Assembly (NCBI GenBank): GCA_049322655.1
Contig: JBMORP010000006.1
Span: 79,863-126,409 of the forward strand
Direction: 5' to 3'
DNA: 46,547 bases
DNA from: Patescibacteria group bacterium
GTDB taxonomy: Bacteria > Patescibacteriota > Microgenomatia > UBA1400 > PJMF01
The notes under the pieces: model-generated
What the model saw: only the letters and a program-made list of their open reading frames with translations
Database searches by the model: none
Told to the model about the DNA's origin: nothing
Program-made: the position numbers and the translations under genes
Part shown: positions 2,708-20,266 of the stretch, piece after piece
Layout of the letters: every line of letters starts with the position of its first letter
How positions within the stretch are numbered: the first letter of the stretch is position 1

Positions 2708-3544
2708 ATGGTTGATAACAACACAGAAACTGAAAAACTATATTTTGATGAATTAATGGATAAATTAGTTAATAGCTTGACAGCTCTTTTTGCTGATGGA
2801 AAATTAGATTTAAAAAAATTAGAAACCTTGATTGGTGGTTTTGTTAATCAGCCCAATGCAGAAAGTAATCACGACGTATCTAATCAATCTTTACCTCCAG
2901 ATTTAATGGAAAATCATATTAGAGGACATTTATCTAGAGTAAAAGCTGAGACATATTTTCCTGCTAAATTTACTGAGAAAATTGATTTCAATGAAGAACT
3001 TTTTTTGGCTGATATTAAATCTAGATCAGAAAAAATAATTACCAGCAGAGTTTTTGATTCTCAAGTTATTAATTCAAATAAATGGATATTTCTTGAAATT
3101 TATAAAGATCAAGCTTATGTGGATAAAGCTTTACCACTTTTTATAAATAATTTAAAAGATAATTTTGGTTCAAAATGGAATCAAGCTGATGTTGAGCCTA
3201 ATATTGATGAAAAAAAACACTTTAGTAGACTGGTTCAAGAACAAATGGTCAAACTATTTAAAGAAAATAACAAAGAAACTGAAAACTTAGATGATGAAGA
3301 AATTTGGAGCATTCTTTGTGACGGATACAGAGTAGGAGCTGATGTTTTTTCAAATTTATTAAGTAGAGCTATGGATAGTTCTGTTTATACAGATAGCGAT
3401 GTTACCGTAAAATCAAGATGTTTCACCATTTTTGATTCATTTAACAATAGAAGATCTATTTCAGTCCTTAATCTAGAAGTTACTTATTCAGAAAAAAAGA
3501 TGAGTGATTTGGCACAACAAAAATTAGATTCTTGGTCAAAATAA
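2708..3544 (+). CDS. Hypothetical protein, 278 aa, AT-rich, no recognisable motif
   Basis: Long open frame starting 12 nt after the ftsZ stop. Soluble-looking, acidic composition. Confidence 0.7.
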   Translation: MVDNNTETEKLYFDELMDKLVNSLTALFADGKLDLKKLETLIGGFVNQPNAESNHDVSNQSLPPDLMENHIRGHLSRVKAETYFPAKFTEKIDFNEELFLADIKSRSEKIITSRVFDSQVINSNKWIFLEIYKDQAYVDKALPLFINNLKDNFGSKWNQADVEPNIDEKKHFSRLVQEQMVKLFKENNKETENLDDEEIWSILCDGYRVGADVFSNLLSRAMDSSVYTDSDVTVKSRCFTIFDSFNNRRSISVLNLEVTYSEKKMSDLAQQKLDSWSK

Positions 3545-3549
3545 CTATC

Positions 3550-3558
3550 TGCTATAAT
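3550..3558 (+). promoter_or_regulatory. Extended -10 promoter (TGcTATAAT) for the ileS leader, TSS about 3565-3566
   Basis: TG-n-TATAAT at 3550-3558, immediately upstream of the T-box leader. No clear -35. Confidence 0.7.
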
Positions 3559-3675
3559 CACTTTCAGTTATTTAAAGTCGTTAGAGTTTGTCATCAGCAG
3601 ACAAGACGTTAGAAGAAATCCTTAACAGGAGATTAGACCTAACCGGGTAAGCCCGTAACAGCTGGAATTAAGTAT

Positions 3676-3840
3676 TAGACTTACTGCTAAATAAAAATCA
3701 TAGTTCTTTCACATCTATTTAAGAATTTATAGCATTTTCTTCTTTATCAAGGAGACATGGCTACTATCGGCATCAAAAAATGCCAAAATTCATTAAATAT
3801 ATGTAAAATTGACAATAATTTTTATTTAGCAGTAAGTCTA
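3676..3840. repeat. Perfect 23-bp inverted repeat enclosing 119 nt (Stem III position of the T-box)
   Basis: TAGACTTACTGCTAAATAAAAAT (3676-3698) is the exact reverse complement of ATTTTTATTTAGCAGTAAGTCTA (3818-3840). Confidence 0.95.
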
Positions 3841-3870
3841 TTGAGAGGTTGGTACCTTTCCTAAACCGGG

Positions 3871-3918
3871 AAGCCTTTTCATTTGATACTATTTAGTATT
3901 AGATGTAAAGGCTTTTTT
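3871..3918 (+). terminator. Intrinsic attenuator terminator of the ileS leader
   Basis: About 20-bp hairpin, arms 3871-3890 and 3895-3914 (one U-U mismatch, two G-U pairs), ending in a U-run at 3913-3918. Its 5' arm overlaps the antiterminator 3' strand. Confidence 0.85.
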
Positions 3919-3937
3919 AGTACTAGGAAAAACAACA

Positions 3938-6772
3938 ATGAAAAAACAATATAATTTCAAACAAACTCCAGACCTACCAAAGTTAGAAGAGGAAGTTTTA
4001 AAGTTTTGGGAAGAAAACAATACTTTTCAACGATCGATAGATCAACGAGATAAAAATAATGCTTATGTTTTTTTTGATGGACCACCTTTTGCCACCGGTC
4101 TACCTCACTATGGTCATATTGTTGCTAGTACGATGAAAGATATTGTACCTCGTTACTGGACCATGAAAGGTAAAAGAGTTGAACGCAAATGGGGTTGGGA
4201 TTGTCATGGTTTACCAATCGAAAACATCGCTGAAAAAGAGCTGGGAATTAAACGTAAAAAAGAGATTGAAGAGTTAGGGGTTGAGAAATTTAATGAGATT
4301 TGTCGATCCAAGGTTTTGTCTTATGTTGATGATTGGAAAAAAATCATTGCTCGTTTGGGCCGTTGGGCTGATATGGAAAACGACTATAAAACCATGGATT
4401 TGAGTTTTATGGAATCTGTTTGGTGGGTGTTTAAGCAACTTTATGATAATGATTTGGTTTATGAGGATTATCGTAGTTTGCATATTTGTCCTCGTTGTGA
4501 AACCACTCTTTCTCAATCAGAAGTAGCAGAAGGTTATAAAAATGTTAAAGACATTTCAGTCACAGCTGAGTTTAAGATTAAAGATTTTTCAAAGTTTCAT
4601 CATGGTGAAGAACAAGTCTTCTTTTTAGCTTGGACTACTACTCCTTGGACATTGCCAGGAAACTTTTTATTGGCAGTGGGGCCGGCAATAAATTATGTGC
4701 TAGTTAGGGGTAATGAAGATGGTAAATTATATGTGTTAGCAGAAACAAGATTGGCAGCAGTATTTGGTGAAGAAGATGACCATGAAATAGTGGCTAGTTA
4801 TCAAGGTCAAGAGTTAGAAGGTTTAAGTTATGAACCTTTATTTCCTTATTTTAAAGACACGGAAAATGCTTTCAGGGTAGTGGCGGCTGAGTTTGTAGCA
4901 ACTGAAGAAGGAACTGGGATTGTTCATATTGCTCCAGGTTTTGGTGAAGATGATTTTCGAGTTGGACAAAAAGAGGGCGTGAAACTAATTCAGCACGTTA
5001 ATATGGATGGCCGATTTATCGAAGCAGTTACTGATTTTCCAGATATGGAAGTTAAACCCAAGGAAGATCCTCAGCGGACTGATATTGAAATCATTCGTTA
5101 CTTGGCAAAAAAAGATTTGTTGTTTAGTAAGAAGAAACTTGAACATAGTTATCCTCATTGTTGGCGGTGTGATACCCCGCTACTCAACTATGCTACCGGT
5201 AGCTGGTTTGTGAATGTAAATAAAATTCACGAAAAATTACTCAAATTAGCTGATGATATTAATTGGTTCCCAGAGCATATTAAACAGGGACGTTGGGGAA
5301 ATTGGTTAGCCGGAGCTCGTGATTGGTCGATTAGTCGACAACGTTATTGGGCCAGTGTGATTCCAGTTTGGCGCTGTGAATGTGGGCAAACAAAAGTTTA
5401 TGGTAGTGTTAAGGATCTAGAACAAGATAGTGGTCAAAAAATAACAGATCTTCATAAACATACAGTTGATAAAATCACTGTCCCTTGTAGTTGTGGTCGA
5501 CAGATGAGACGTATCCCCGATGTATTAGATACTTGGTTTGATAGTGGTTCTATGCCATATGGTCAGGCTCATTATCCTTTTGAAAATAAACAAGAATTTG
5601 AAAACAATTTTCCAGCCGAGTTTATTGGAGAGGGAGTTGATCAAACTAGAGCTTGGTTCTATTACTTGCATGTAATTGCCGGAGGGATCAGAGAAACCAA
5701 AGCTTTCAAAAATGTGATTGTTAATGGGATTGTTTTGGCTGAAGATGGTAAGAAAATGAGTAAACGTTTGCAAAATTATCCTGATCCTGTTTTGCTAATT
5801 GATAATTATGGTACTGATAGTTTGAGAATGTATTTAGCTAGTTCCCCAGTGTTAAAAGCAGAAAATCTTAATTTTAGTGAAAAAGAAGTGGCCGATATTC
5901 GTCGTAAAACCTTTGTGATTTGGTGGAACATCATTGGCTTTTACAAAAGTTTTGTCAAAGATGAGGTTATTACTCGACCAGCTAGTCGACCAGTTCATCT
6001 TTTAGATCAGTGGTTATTGAGCAAAATGCAAACTGTGATCGAACAGGTGACTAAATATTTAGATGGCTATGATTTGGTCAGAGCTAGCAGAATTTTGTTG
6101 GATTTTGTTAACGAACTTTCCACTTGGTATCTTCGTTTGAGCAGAGACAGACTAAAAGAAGGTAATGATTCAGCTGCCGAACAGGTGTTTGGCTATGTGC
6201 TTTATACTCTGGCTCAACTTTTTGCTCCATTTGCTCCTTTTTTTGCTGAAATGGTTCATCATGCGTTAGTTGATGAGCAAACCTCAATTCATCTCACTGA
6301 TTGGCCAGGTTTTGACTCAGCTTTGCAGGATAGAGAGCTAGAGGAACAAATGAGTTTGGTTCAGAAAATCATTGAAGTAGGTCACTCAGCTAGAAAACAA
6401 CAGGGAGTTAGGTTGAGACAACCACTATCCCTAGTAACTGTGCGGTTGGCCAAAGAAACTAAGAGTGATGTGTTAGGTAAATTCACCGAATTAATAAAAG
6501 CAGAACTTAATGTTAAAAGCGTAAATTGGACAATTGCCTCTGATGATCAGTTAGTTGTTGAATTTTCTTGGGAGTTAACAGCTGAACTCAAGGCTGAAGG
6601 TGAAGCTAGAGAAATCATGAGAACGATTCAGAATTTACGCCGTCAAGCTGGTTTATCAATAAGTGAACAAGCTGTTGTTAGTTTGCCTGATTGGCCAGCT
6701 GTTTGGCAAAATGAAATCGAGACTAAAACCTCAACAAAACTAGTGAAAGGTGATAGAGTTGAGTTACAATGA
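3938..6772 (+). CDS. ileS: Isoleucine-tRNA ligase, type 2 (eukaryote/archaea-like, mupirocin-insensitive class)
   Basis: FFDGPPFATGLPHYGH, GWDCHGLPIE, WTTTPWTLP editing motif, GTGIVHIAPGFG, DWSISRQRYW, GKKMSKRLQNYPDP. Confidence 0.97.
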   Translation: MKKQYNFKQTPDLPKLEEEVLKFWEENNTFQRSIDQRDKNNAYVFFDGPPFATGLPHYGHIVASTMKDIVPRYWTMKGKRVERKWGWDCHGLPIENIAEKELGIKRKKEIEELGVEKFNEICRSKVLSYVDDWKKIIARLGRWADMENDYKTMDLSFMESVWWVFKQLYDNDLVYEDYRSLHICPRCETTLSQSEVAEGYKNVKDISVTAEFKIKDFSKFHHGEEQVFFLAWTTTPWTLPGNFLLAVGPAINYVLVRGNEDGKLYVLAETRLAAVFGEEDDHEIVASYQGQELEGLSYEPLFPYFKDTENAFRVVAAEFVATEEGTGIVHIAPGFGEDDFRVGQKEGVKLIQHVNMDGRFIEAVTDFPDMEVKPKEDPQRTDIEIIRYLAKKDLLFSKKKLEHSYPHCWRCDTPLLNYATGSWFVNVNKIHEKLLKLADDINWFPEHIKQGRWGNWLAGARDWSISRQRYWASVIPVWRCECGQTKVYGSVKDLEQDSGQKITDLHKHTVDKITVPCSCGRQMRRIPDVLDTWFDSGSMPYGQAHYPFENKQEFENNFPAEFIGEGVDQTRAWFYYLHVIAGGIRETKAFKNVIVNGIVLAEDGKKMSKRLQNYPDPVLLIDNYGTDSLRMYLASSPVLKAENLNFSEKEVADIRRKTFVIWWNIIGFYKSFVKDEVITRPASRPVHLLDQWLLSKMQTVIEQVTKYLDGYDLVRASRILLDFVNELSTWYLRLSRDRLKEGNDSAAEQVFGYVLYTLAQLFAPFAPFFAEMVHHALVDEQTSIHLTDWPGFDSALQDRELEEQMSLVQKIIEVGHSARKQQGVRLRQPLSLVTVRLAKETKSDVLGKFTELIKAELNVKSVNWTIASDDQLVVEFSWELTAELKAEGEAREIMRTIQNLRRQAGLSISEQAVVSLPDWPAVWQNEIETKTSTKLVKGDRVELQ

Positions 6773-18651: not shown

Positions 18652-20043
18652 TTACGATAGCATACTTGTTAAATGTTGCTCAACTGCCTCAACAGTGAGT
18701 CGTTCTTGGTGAGTATTGTCTCTGTTTCTTAAAGTGACAGTGCCATCTTCTAAAGTTTGGTAATCAACTGTTAAACAATAAGGAGTCCCGATTTCATCTT
18801 GAGCTAGATAGCGTTTACCGATATTACCTCTTTCGTCCCAAGTGACATTGGTTTTTTTCTTTAATTGATCGAATATTTCTTGAGCCTTACTCACAATGTC
18901 TTCTTTATTTTTAACTAGAGGAAAAACAGCAATTTTATAAGGAGCAAATTTGGCTGGTAATTTTAAGTAAGTTCGGTTGTTTTCTTGATCAACAGTATAA
19001 GCTTGGGCTAACATGGCCAAGAAGATTCGATTAATGCCAAAAGTTGGTTCGATGACATGGGGAATAAATTTACGTTGTGGATCATATGGATCGGTATAGC
19101 GTAAATCAACACCAGATTTTTCCATGTGATTTCTTAAATCATAATCAGTTCGATAAGCTAAGCCGAACATTTCTTTGAAGCCAAAAGGAAATTCATAATC
19201 AAGATCTTCAGTTCTGGTTGAATAATGAGATCTTTCTTCGTCAGTGTGCTGACGCCAACGCAGGTTAGTATTACTTAGGCCTAGAGATAAAGCGAACTCT
19301 TGCATGACTGTTTGCCATTTTTCAAAGAATTTTTCCCAGTTTTCTTTTTCTGGGTCAAAAAAGTATTCAAATTCTGCTAGGTTAAACTCTAAGGTGCGAA
19401 AAATGAAGTTACCCAAAGTGATTTCATTACGGAAAGCCTTGCCAGTTTGGGCGATACCAAATGGTAACTTTGGCCTCATGGTGTTTAGGACATTCTTAAA
19501 GTTCACAAACATCCCCTGGGCAATTTCTCCACGCAGATAAGCCAAAGATTGTGATTCTTCAACAATGCCGATATTGGTTTCAAAGAGTAAGTTAAATGAT
19601 CTCACTTCTGTCCAGGCTTGGTTACCACAAGTCGGGCATTTGATTTTTAAATCATGAATAAGTTGAGTTAATTCTGCTGGAGTTTTTCCCTCAACTTTTA
19701 GTTCTTCACCTTGTTTGGCGGTAAAGTCTTCAATTAGGTGGTCAGCTCTAGTTCTAGTTTTACAAGTTTTACAGTCAATCAAAGCATCAGTAAAACTAGC
19801 AGTGTGACCAGAAGCCTCCCAAACTTTTGGACTCATTAAGATTGAAGTGTCTAAACCATACATATCCTGACGTTTAGTGACAAAAAACTGCCACCAGTGG
19901 TTAAGGATATTACGGAGTAATTCCACGCCCAATGGCCCAAAATCGTAAGTATTGGCTAATCCTCCATAGATCTCTGAACCAGGAAAAATAAAGCCTCTAC
20001 GTTTGGCTAAAGCGATGACATCATTCATGGTGGTTTTTGACAT
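18652..20043 (-). CDS. glyS: Glycine-tRNA ligase, alpha2 (eukaryote-like) type
   Basis: KRRGFIFPGSEIYGG, YDFGPLG, WEASGH, LRGEIAQG, GIAQTGKAFRNEIT, HVIEPTFG, QDEIGTPYCLTVD. Confidence 0.96.
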   Translation of the reverse strand: MSKTTMNDVIALAKRRGFIFPGSEIYGGLANTYDFGPLGVELLRNILNHWWQFFVTKRQDMYGLDTSILMSPKVWEASGHTASFTDALIDCKTCKTRTRADHLIEDFTAKQGEELKVEGKTPAELTQLIHDLKIKCPTCGNQAWTEVRSFNLLFETNIGIVEESQSLAYLRGEIAQGMFVNFKNVLNTMRPKLPFGIAQTGKAFRNEITLGNFIFRTLEFNLAEFEYFFDPEKENWEKFFEKWQTVMQEFALSLGLSNTNLRWRQHTDEERSHYSTRTEDLDYEFPFGFKEMFGLAYRTDYDLRNHMEKSGVDLRYTDPYDPQRKFIPHVIEPTFGINRIFLAMLAQAYTVDQENNRTYLKLPAKFAPYKIAVFPLVKNKEDIVSKAQEIFDQLKKKTNVTWDERGNIGKRYLAQDEIGTPYCLTVDYQTLEDGTVTLRNRDNTHQERLTVEAVEQHLTSMLS

Positions 20044-20091
20044 AATTAACTCCTTAATTTATTTATATCTGTTTTCTGGGGAATTAGCTAC

Positions 20092-20121
20092 AAAAAACCC
20101 CAGCAATTATTGTTGCTAGGG
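20092..20121 (-). terminator. Intrinsic attenuator terminator of the glyS leader
   Basis: 9-bp stem with a CAAUAA loop followed by UUUUUU. Its first four nucleotides (CCCU) are shared with antiterminator helix A1. Confidence 0.85.
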
Positions 20122-20231
20122 ACCCTACCGGGCGGTTCCACCCTGATTCTTCGGAAAACTCCAAAGCTCTTTAAGTTTTTTAGTATTGTTTTCCTGAATG
20201 TCAGGCTCGCTGGCCAAGGGCGAGCAATACT
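20092..20231 (-). promoter_or_regulatory. Minimal Gly T-box riboswitch (transcriptional)
   Basis: Canonical T-box AAUCAGGG-UGGAACC-GCCC (20148-20130) pairs with GGGU-CCCU. Terminator CCCUAGCAA/UUGCUGGGG plus U6. GGC in a hairpin loop (20215-20213). Lies upstream of glyS. Confidence 0.88.
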
Positions 20232-20237
20232 AGGGTT

Positions 20238-20266
20238 ATTATATTTTTTTCTTGTTAAAGAAGCAA
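20238..20266 (-). promoter_or_regulatory. sigma70 promoter for the glyS leader, TSS about 20231
   Basis: TTGCTT (20266-20261), 17-nt spacer, TATAAT (20243-20238). Confidence 0.8.

Follow-up and report, generated by a model that had tools for sequence, protein, structure and literature searches.

The 46,547-nucleotide stretch of a Patescibacteria group bacterium analyzed here (contig JBMORP010000006.1, positions 79,863 to 126,409; referred to as the window, G+C content about 37%) carries the isoleucyl-tRNA synthetase (IleRS) gene ileS, and the leader in front of this gene is very probably an isoleucine-specific T-box belonging to a Patescibacteria-wide family in which an ultrashort decoding module is coupled to an intrinsic terminator. 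The ileS gene (3938-6772, start codon ATG at 3938; all features are on the forward strand unless indicated otherwise) encodes a 944-aa IleRS with the Pfam domains tRNA-synt_1 and Anticodon_1, and the closest relatives of this protein were found in Patescibacteria metagenome-assembled genomes labelled Pacebacteria, of the Microgenomates type. The spacer of 393 nt that separates ileS from an open reading frame (ORF) of 278 aa (2708-3544) houses the entire T-box element (3574-3918), located 5' of ileS. The original prediction, made from the letters of this stretch, had described the leader as a hybrid in which a module with an ultrashort Stem I is wired to a terminator, and this proposal was supported by the individual parts, their conservation and covariation, and their folding energies as detailed below; each of its five listed features was present at the position given.

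A scan for IleRS with one genome per species yielded 80 Patescibacteria loci, and in about 30 of these the region 5' of ileS contained a TGGTACC core with a hairpin and then a T-run behind it. Their common layout comprised AAAGCG..., a 4-6-bp hairpin with the loop NNAUCAN, GAGCU and a helix with GAAGAAA and AGUAGAAC, followed by CGGG-NNNG-CCCG-UAAYAGC, AAUUAAG, an optional hairpin and RGGUGGUACC. A covariance model of the decoding half (99 positions, 15 pairs), based on an alignment of 15 simple leaders, was searched against the window and the 80 loci (81 sources, 627 kb, both strands). Matches at E <= 0.005 were obtained in 36 of the 81 sources, all on the ileS strand and 5' of ileS, and the window contained exactly one (3574-3672, 94.3 bits). 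For counting pairs, the pseudoknot was added to the alignment obtained from the model; standard pairs were formed in 95.0% of the 617 pair cells and both-sided changes were observed in 17 of 18 pairs, counts that lean towards the structure, the alignment having been fitted to the model. With shuffled partners the value was 72% (0 of 500 shuffles reached the observed one) and with partners slid by 1-3 columns it was 26-41%. In view of these slid controls and of how varied the pair types are, we judged the covariation signal to be real.

The closest relatives by IleRS identity were loci L082 (93%), L001 (81%), L083 (78%), L085 (77%) and L086 (77%, identical to metagenome locus L081). Six relatives with IleRS identities of 77-93% retain the leader, which has a length of about 230 nt. 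A comparison with orthologous leaders of the candidate phyla radiation (CPR) had been suggested together with the original prediction, and Stem II, Stem IIA/B and the loop AUC were conserved across the family. Since the design recurs in 36 of the 81 Patescibacteria ileS loci, the suggestion of a lineage-wide reduced T-box system is supported for ileS. The family is large and unannotated in this phylum and apparently undescribed; a full-text literature search returned nothing relevant on T-boxes in Patescibacteria or the CPR.

The codon-bearing hairpin is an ultrashort Stem I, GUUUG[UCAUCAG]CAGAC (3586-3602), with 5 bp and a 7-nt apical loop that presents the Ile codon AUC (3593-3595) with A3596, a conserved purine, directly after it. 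It had originally been drawn as UUGUC[AUCAGCA]GACAA (3588-3604), a hairpin that can form, and AUC and the following A occupy the apical loop under either register. The folding energies (-3.6 kcal/mol for UUGUC[AUCAGCA]GACAA and -2.8 kcal/mol for GUUUG[UCAUCAG]CAGAC) do not settle the register, and it is sequence comparison that favors the latter. Among six close relatives this register was paired in 24 of 24 cells with two compensatory pairs, U3588.G3600 being replaced by C-G in L082, L083 and L085 and a Stem I G-C by A-U in L086, whereas the register drawn originally was paired in 73% of cells, exhibited no compensatory change and had three of its five pairs broken. Across the family, at least 32 of 37 leaders displayed AUC at loop positions 3-5, preceded by two loop nucleotides, on stems of unrelated sequence; the loop measured 7 nt in 23 and 6 nt in nine of them. 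The leader therefore has what defines a specifier in the T-box class, an unpaired Ile codon followed by a purine and situated 5' of ileS. A canonical long Stem I with distal interdigitated T-loops for the tRNA elbow was not found in it. Two other specifier candidates were rejected. A second AUC (3618-3620) lies within the strand of the S-turn and upper helix of Stem II and is not kept there in the family, and the non-Ile specifiers that the covariance-model alignment suggested for L042 and L053 resulted from mis-assignment of an extra hairpin by the model: the true Stem I of L042 is GGUGG[CUAUCA]CCAUU, which carries AUC, and a comparable AUC hairpin was picked in L053.

Stem I is enclosed, together with an asymmetric K-turn-like loop, by a closing helix GUC/GAC (3577-3579 with 3605-3607) that was not part of the original prediction. 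This helix was paired in 95% of cells in 36 leaders, with both-sided changes in all three pairs, and GUC/GAC of the window is represented by AUC/GAU in L082. The conserved asymmetric loop places six nucleotides, GUUAGA (3580-3585), opposite the two nucleotides AA (3603-3604) at the K-turn position, where G3584.A3604 and A3585.A3603 occur in the window together with a bulge of 4 nt. Canonical tandem G.A/A.G pairs at this base loop were observed in some family members only (L005, L028 and L057).

The adjoining Stem II (3608-3643) consists of a lower helix GUUAG/CUAAC (3608-3612/3639-3643), which was paired in 100% of cells across the 36 leaders with compensatory changes in five of five pairs, and an upper helix UCCU/AGGA with the loop UAAC. 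Between the two helices, AAGAAA (3613-3618) faces GAUUAGAC (3631-3638) in an internal loop of the S-turn type, which fits the family consensus GAAGAAA / AGUAGAAC. Stem II with this S-turn-like loop had been proposed from the outset and was found to be present and conserved, with a covarying flanking helix. Judged by its nucleotides, the loop would correspond to the S-turn of the ultrashort-Stem-I ileS T-boxes.

Stem II is followed by a 20-nt H-type pseudoknot, the Stem IIA/B element CGGG-UAAG-CCCG-UAAC-AGCU (3644-3663), within which an F-box-like CCGUAA (3653-3658) is located. Its helix S1 (3644-3646 with 3653-3655) was paired in 99% of cells with both-sided changes in two of three pairs, and helix S2 (AGC 3650-3652 with GCU 3661-3663) in 89% with both-sided changes in all three. 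The third S2 pair was AU in 13 members, GC in five, CG in three, UA in two, GU in one and unpaired in ten, amounting to four Watson-Crick types, and longer covarying S2 helices were observed in L004 (ACGGAA:UUCCGU), L012 (AGCAU:AUGCU) and L058 (GCGA:UCGC), whose pseudoknot loops are unusual, as well as in L025. The pairing of AGC with GCU, as originally predicted, is thus backed by covariation in the family, but its third pair is lost in the closest relatives. A compact IIA/B pseudoknot with an F-box is a feature of the ultrashort-Stem-I ileS T-boxes and is present here. The purine-rich linker GGAAUUAAGUAU (3664-3675) that follows has the family consensus AAUUAAG and is conserved in the alignments. 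A separate conserved motif, UGCUAAAGCUACG, recurs at the tips of extra hairpins in L002, L009, L026, L031 and L076. These hairpins either separate Stem I from the closing helix or cap Stem II, and the motif may provide a further contact to the tRNA in place of the absent elbow platform.

The output half of the leader contains an antiterminator (3843-3879, -8.5 kcal/mol) in which helix A1 (GAGAGGU 3843-3849 with GCCUUUU 3873-3879) and helix A2 (UUUCC 3857-3861 with GGGAA 3868-3872) flank the 7-nt T-box bulge UGGUACC (3850-3856). Bacterial tRNA-Ile has A73, and its ACCA 3' end is complementary to UGGU. A 7-nt UGGN-ACC bulge between A1 and A2, with N matching the discriminator base of the tRNA, is diagnostic of the T-box class, and the parts of the antiterminator proposed originally were in this way confirmed. 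The bulge at 3850-3856 was the sole match to the motif in the window that falls in the ileS leader. UGGUACC was found in 33 of 36 family members, the other three (L010, L024 and L043) carrying UGGUAAC or UGGUAUC with an intact decoding module, and AGGUUGGUACCUUUCC in the antiterminator was invariant across six relatives. As a side observation, L086/L081 carries a lineage-specific hairpin insertion, GUCACUAAUUAGUGAC (L086 800-830), in helix A2 and not at Stem III, a further case of insertion at a permissive site of the discriminator.

Overlapping the antiterminator is an intrinsic terminator with a 19-bp hairpin (3871-3914) and a U6 tract (3913-3918), which had been predicted at 20 bp and is otherwise as described. 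It folds with -23.6 kcal/mol (z = -7.4), a value attained by 0 of 200 shuffles. In six relatives 114 of 114 terminator pair cells were paired, with two compensatory and seven one-sided changes, compared with 36-57% for slid controls. The 3' strand of A1 (3873-3879) is shared with the 5' arm of the terminator, so that the two helices are mutually exclusive, an arrangement that, together with the U6 tract, is characteristic of the T-box class. According to a crude script, a hairpin of -7 kcal/mol or lower stood directly before a T-run in at least 26 of 36 members, and by eye in most of the others too; the best-scoring hairpin with a T-run overlapped the inferred A1 3' strand in 23 of 36.

The Shine-Dalgarno sequence AGGA (3925-3928) is located 7 nt 3' of the U6 tract and outside the terminator hairpin, and the sequestrator/antisequestrator platform typical of translational T-boxes was not found in the leader. 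The geometry of the output half accordingly points to transcription attenuation and not to Shine-Dalgarno sequestration. A translational switch, operating alone or in addition, would require an OFF state in which UUUCCUA (3857-3863) pairs with UAGGAAA (3924-3930), including the Shine-Dalgarno sequence. Such a complementarity of 7 bp, involving the 5' strand of A2 and bracketing the terminator, does exist, is also visible in the mir-3910 pseudo-alignment and is retained with 8 bp in L082, and short Stem I elements have been tied to translational control in the literature (PMC7583486, PMC11297988). We nevertheless consider this switch quite unlikely. The Shine-Dalgarno sequence stays outside a conserved hairpin whose U6 end is that of an intrinsic terminator. 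In L001, L083, L085 and L086 no more than 4-5 bp of the complementarity are left (UUUCC/GGAAA), which any purine-rich Shine-Dalgarno sequence would provide, and 3843-3860 forms a hairpin of its own in the OFF fold instead. Furthermore, a hairpin with a U-run was present family-wide at a distance from the start codon varying between 20 and 730 nt, which also argues for attenuation by termination.

The Stem III position, which separates the IIA/B element from the T-box core, is occupied in the window by a near-perfect palindrome of 165 nt (3676-3840) that had been overlooked in the original prediction. It folds with -56.7 kcal/mol (z = -11.2), its outer helix comprising 23 perfect bp, and its arms include 29-nt segments with 93% and 32-nt segments with 78% complementarity. 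TAT direct repeats flank it on both sides (3673-3675 and 3839-3841). The relatives read AAG-UAAA-GAGAGG at this junction and lack any Stem III, compared with AAG-UAU-[3676-3840]-UU-GAGAGG in the window; the ancestral site, read with the TAT repeat on either side, equals the L082 site in length. The palindrome was absent from L082, L001, L083, L085 and L086/L081, and an empty site was also present in L082-like relatives in metagenomes X9 and X13, where 3674 is joined to 3843 through AA. Another relative, present in X9 and X12, likewise lacked the insert (joint 3672>3862). On the other hand, contigs of the same species carried the palindrome in six metagenomes (X1, X2, X3, X4, X6 and X10). The insertion is therefore recent and species-specific, since it is missing from all relatives including L082 at 93% IleRS identity.

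A second copy of the palindrome at 80% likeness or more was not found in the window, 87 loci or the six metagenomes, and a multi-copy miniature inverted-repeat transposable element (MITE) was rejected on these grounds. From its structure and distribution, the insert is best described as a MITE-like hairpin that entered the Stem III position recently, in this species alone and in a single copy. It shares near-perfect palindromy, short direct repeats, a location in a transcribed leader and the formation of a long RNA hairpin with palindromic MITE-type insertions such as the Neisseria Correia and enterobacterial ERIC elements, and differs in its single copy, in having no known transposase link and in sitting exactly at a riboswitch-permissive site. 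Separately, a 294-nt contig in X9 contained a 39-nt match to 3737-3775, whose flanks (CATCTATTTAA..., ...TTAAATATATG) loosely resemble the neighbouring insert; this contig may represent a diverged second member of a palindromic element family in another organism or at another locus.

The insertion raises the question of whether the T-box is a relic in which the decoding module was split from the discriminator and tRNA sensing was disabled, with ileS expressed through leakage of the terminator or from another promoter. The recent origin of the insert, the longest linker of the family and the substitutions that gather in the insert interior (three of the five listed single-nucleotide polymorphisms (SNPs) of a strain variant in X3, X4 and X6 fall in these 165 of 651 nt) would fit a relic. 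Several observations nevertheless make this very unlikely. The insert is a self-closing hairpin, the base of which restores the original junction, and six other members bear Stem III elements of 65-94 nt, Stem III being a common site of insertion (PMC7583486). None of the SNPs affects a core motif, and no core motif differs from its counterpart in the insert-less L082. The number of promoters found in the insert was not above chance (four compared with 3.3 expected). A disabled antiterminator before a terminator of -23.6 kcal/mol should be strongly counter-selected at an aminoacyl-tRNA synthetase gene. Moreover, the species was abundant (depth 73x in run X1) and the core motifs were unchanged across the six metagenomes, so that expression of ileS must still be possible.

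The insert also encodes the start of a 35-codon ORF (3757-3864) with four Ile codons, which as a leader peptide could add ribosome-mediated attenuation. AAGGAG (3749-3754) precedes its ATG at 3757 and its stop codon (3862-3864) falls within helix A2, but only 2 nt separate the ATG from the Shine-Dalgarno-like sequence and the ORF, like the whole insert, is absent from all relatives. This explanation is extremely improbable and we regard it as ruled out, because T3758C in the strain variant of X3, X4 and X6 turns the ATG of the insert's only ORF into ACG. A role for the palindrome itself is unlikely as well, if less so than the explanations above. It may be kept because it supplies the Stem III helix that this subclade lacks, because 165 nt provide extra transcription time or because it is an RNase III entry site. 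Extra transcription time would let a slow, elbow-independent decoding module capture tRNA-Ile, and with an RNase III site the 23-bp perfect duplex may set the turnover of the leader and the ileS mRNA. The Stem III position is known to tolerate insertions (PMC7583486), and Stem III normally stacks on the antiterminator (bioRxiv 10.1101/2023.02.28.530422).

Taken as an isoleucine-specific T-box with intrinsic terminator, the leader would function as follows. We infer that it binds tRNA-Ile, senses its charge, terminates transcription in vivo and tolerates the insertion. Nascent RNA starting at about 3565 would fold into a compact module of closing helix, Stem I, Stem II with its S-turn and IIA/B pseudoknot. 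If the ileS T-box structures of Nocardia and Mycobacterium are taken as homologous, the AUC:GAU codon-anticodon duplex of tRNA-Ile would be clamped by purines of the S-turn and the tRNA elbow would not be contacted. The 165-nt palindrome is expected to fold on itself at the Stem III position and to rejoin the decoding and discriminator halves. If the tRNA-Ile is uncharged, its ACCA end would pair with UGGU (3850-3853) and stabilize the weak antiterminator (-8.5 kcal/mol), leading to readthrough into ileS. With charged or absent tRNA, the A1 3' strand (3873-3879) would be captured by the terminator (-23.6 kcal/mol and U6) and transcription would stop at about 3916-3918.

The decoding half closely resembles the ultrashort-Stem-I ileS T-boxes of Actinobacteria (M. 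tuberculosis, 6UFG; M. smegmatis; N. farcinica, 6UFM), a likeness that rests on published feature descriptions and not on sequence alignment. In the actinobacterial decoding module a short Stem I displays the codon A16-U17-C18 and the purine A19 in its apical loop, and the further parts are an S-turn formed in N. farcinica by G37-A38-A39 and G67-(U)-A69-G70-A71, in which the G67U change costs 2.4-fold in tRNA binding, and a 21-nt pseudoknot containing the F-box 87-CCGUCA-92 (PMC7583486). Shared features include the ileS gene, AUC with a following purine, a very short Stem I, the absence of a distal T-loop elbow platform, an asymmetric base loop, a GAA... / (G/U)UAGA S-turn in Stem II, a compact IIA/B with F-box (CCGUAA here, CCGUCA in the published RNAs) and a UGGN-ACC bulge. 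The family consensus AGUAGA contains the N. farcinica GUAGA (G67-A71), and the window has UUAGA, with a U at the position of the tolerated G67U change. Both RNAs have 16 nt from the last A of the S-turn to the first C of the F-box (A71 to C87 and A3637 to C3653), and CCGUCA itself was found in the family members L006, L014 and L027. In contrast to the actinobacterial class, the output here consists of a terminator and an antiterminator in place of a Shine-Dalgarno sequestrator and antisequestrator, the host is a member of the Patescibacteria, the subclade lacks Stem III save for the 165-nt insertion, the K-turn is non-canonical and the pseudoknot measures 20 nt compared with the published 21 nt.

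With canonical transcriptional T-boxes (RF00230; B. subtilis tyrS and ileS; glyQS) the leader has in common the pairing of specifier and anticodon, the UGGN-NCCA interaction and an antiterminator opposed by a stronger terminator with a U-tract, and it possesses Stem II and IIA/B like the majority of non-glycine T-boxes. It differs in Stem I, a 5-bp hairpin that displays the codon in its terminal loop, whereas the canonical form measures about 90 nt and includes a specifier bulge, an AG bulge and a distal loop. A1 differs as well, ending in U.G (GGU-UGGUACC) and not in GGG-UGGUACC. Most translational T-boxes have an intermediate or ultrashort Stem I, for which a kinetic rationale has been offered (PMC7583486), and the dichotomy between long and short Stem I was repeated in 2024 (PMC11297988). 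In Actinobacteria, these reviews associate the ultrashort Stem I with translational control that is slower and reversible. The translational Ile model of TBDB was searched in Actinobacteria only.

A number of points weigh against the assignment of the ileS leader to the T-boxes or to this mechanism, in addition to the lean of the covariation counts mentioned above. In L082, L001, L083 and L085, the nearest relatives, A.C or A.A stands in place of the third S2 pair of the pseudoknot, and the K-turn of the window is non-canonical with G.A followed by A.A. The decoding module is separated from the T-box core by 177 nt, the largest distance in the family, compared with linkers of 11-33 nt in 26 of 33 members and 65-94 nt in six, and this could impair function. 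A tRNA search detected no tRNA in the window and no tRNA-Ile in any of 60 loci, tRNA-Ala alone being found. According to the kinetic argument of the field, transcriptional T-boxes depend on a long Stem I, whose contact with the elbow speeds up capture of the tRNA before the polymerase arrives at the terminator (PMC7583486). The Rfam T-box model RF00230 also failed to recognize the ileS leader. At the gathering threshold Rfam scanning identified no family in the whole window, RF00230 produced no match even at E <= 10 in 3500-3960 or in the insert-less leader of L001, and it was without a match at gathering (93 bits) in 19 related ileS loci. We attribute these nulls to a limit of the model and not to absence of a T-box.

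By coupling an ultrashort module to an intrinsic terminator, the Patescibacteria family contradicts the rule that transcriptional T-boxes generally need a long Stem I. If our reading of the leader is correct, co-transcriptional sensing of tRNA might work without the Stem I platform regarded as kinetically required, and the kinetic hypothesis becomes directly testable with short natural RNAs. T-boxes would be extended to a phylum where standard Rfam annotation finds none, and many leaders of aminoacyl-tRNA synthetase genes in candidate phyla are probably regulated yet unannotated. The two leaders at 93% IleRS identity that differ by a 165-nt hairpin at the Stem III site would constitute a natural experiment. 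The corrected Stem I register and the recent palindromic insertion are particular to the window.

Upstream of the element, an extended -10 promoter element, TGCTATAAT (3550-3558), was read from the sequence; it had not been mentioned in the original prediction and would place the start of transcription at about 3565. TGNTATAAT was found at the matching offset in L082, L001, L083, L085 and L086. A general promoter scan omitted the element at 3550-3558, and a good -35 hexamer is lacking. In the same five relatives the stop codon of ftsZ lies about 5-20 nt 5' of the -10 box (5 nt in L082), and by gene calls ftsZ is located immediately 5' of ileS in L082, L083, L085 and L086. The -10 box lies 19 nt before the closing helix and the inferred start of transcription about 12 nt before it. 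A long Stem I cannot fit into so short a region, nor is there room for one in the relatives, where the end of ftsZ comes immediately before it. The 278-aa ORF between ftsZ and the ileS promoter in the window (2708-3544, forward strand) had no Pfam or PHROG match. Because ftsZ adjoins the leader in four relatives (77-93% IleRS identity), this ORF is a species-specific insertion beside the species-specific 165-nt insert.

A second, candidate reduced T-box was observed in the window, in the leader of glyS (leader about 20086-20250, glyS 18652-20043, minus strand). Its hairpin CUCGC[CCUUGGCCA]GCGAG presents GGC in the loop. Stem II and IIA/B are absent, and what follows is a Stem III of 7 bp, AGGG-UGGAACC-GCCC and a terminator ending in a U6 tract. 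RF00230 matched this leader with 26.7 bits (E = 2.3e-4), below the gathering value of 93 and covering the half with Stem III and antiterminator only. These features fit the remark in the original prediction that two reduced T-box leaders are present in this stretch, and the glyS leader is the one case beyond isoleucine that the analysis covered.

The position of the T-box relative to ileS varied among the Patescibacteria loci. It was located 720-730 nt 5' of ileS in L042 (1535-1770) and L053 and about 500 nt 5' of ileS in L023, L028, L057 and L020. In L042 the T-box precedes a 181-aa ORF (1860-2405), and the switch appears to govern an operon of two genes. A tRNA-Ala(UGC) gene was present on the opposite strand 5' of ileS in L010, L043 and L045, at a distance from the decoding module of about 1,160 nt on its 5' side in L010 and about 280 nt in L043.

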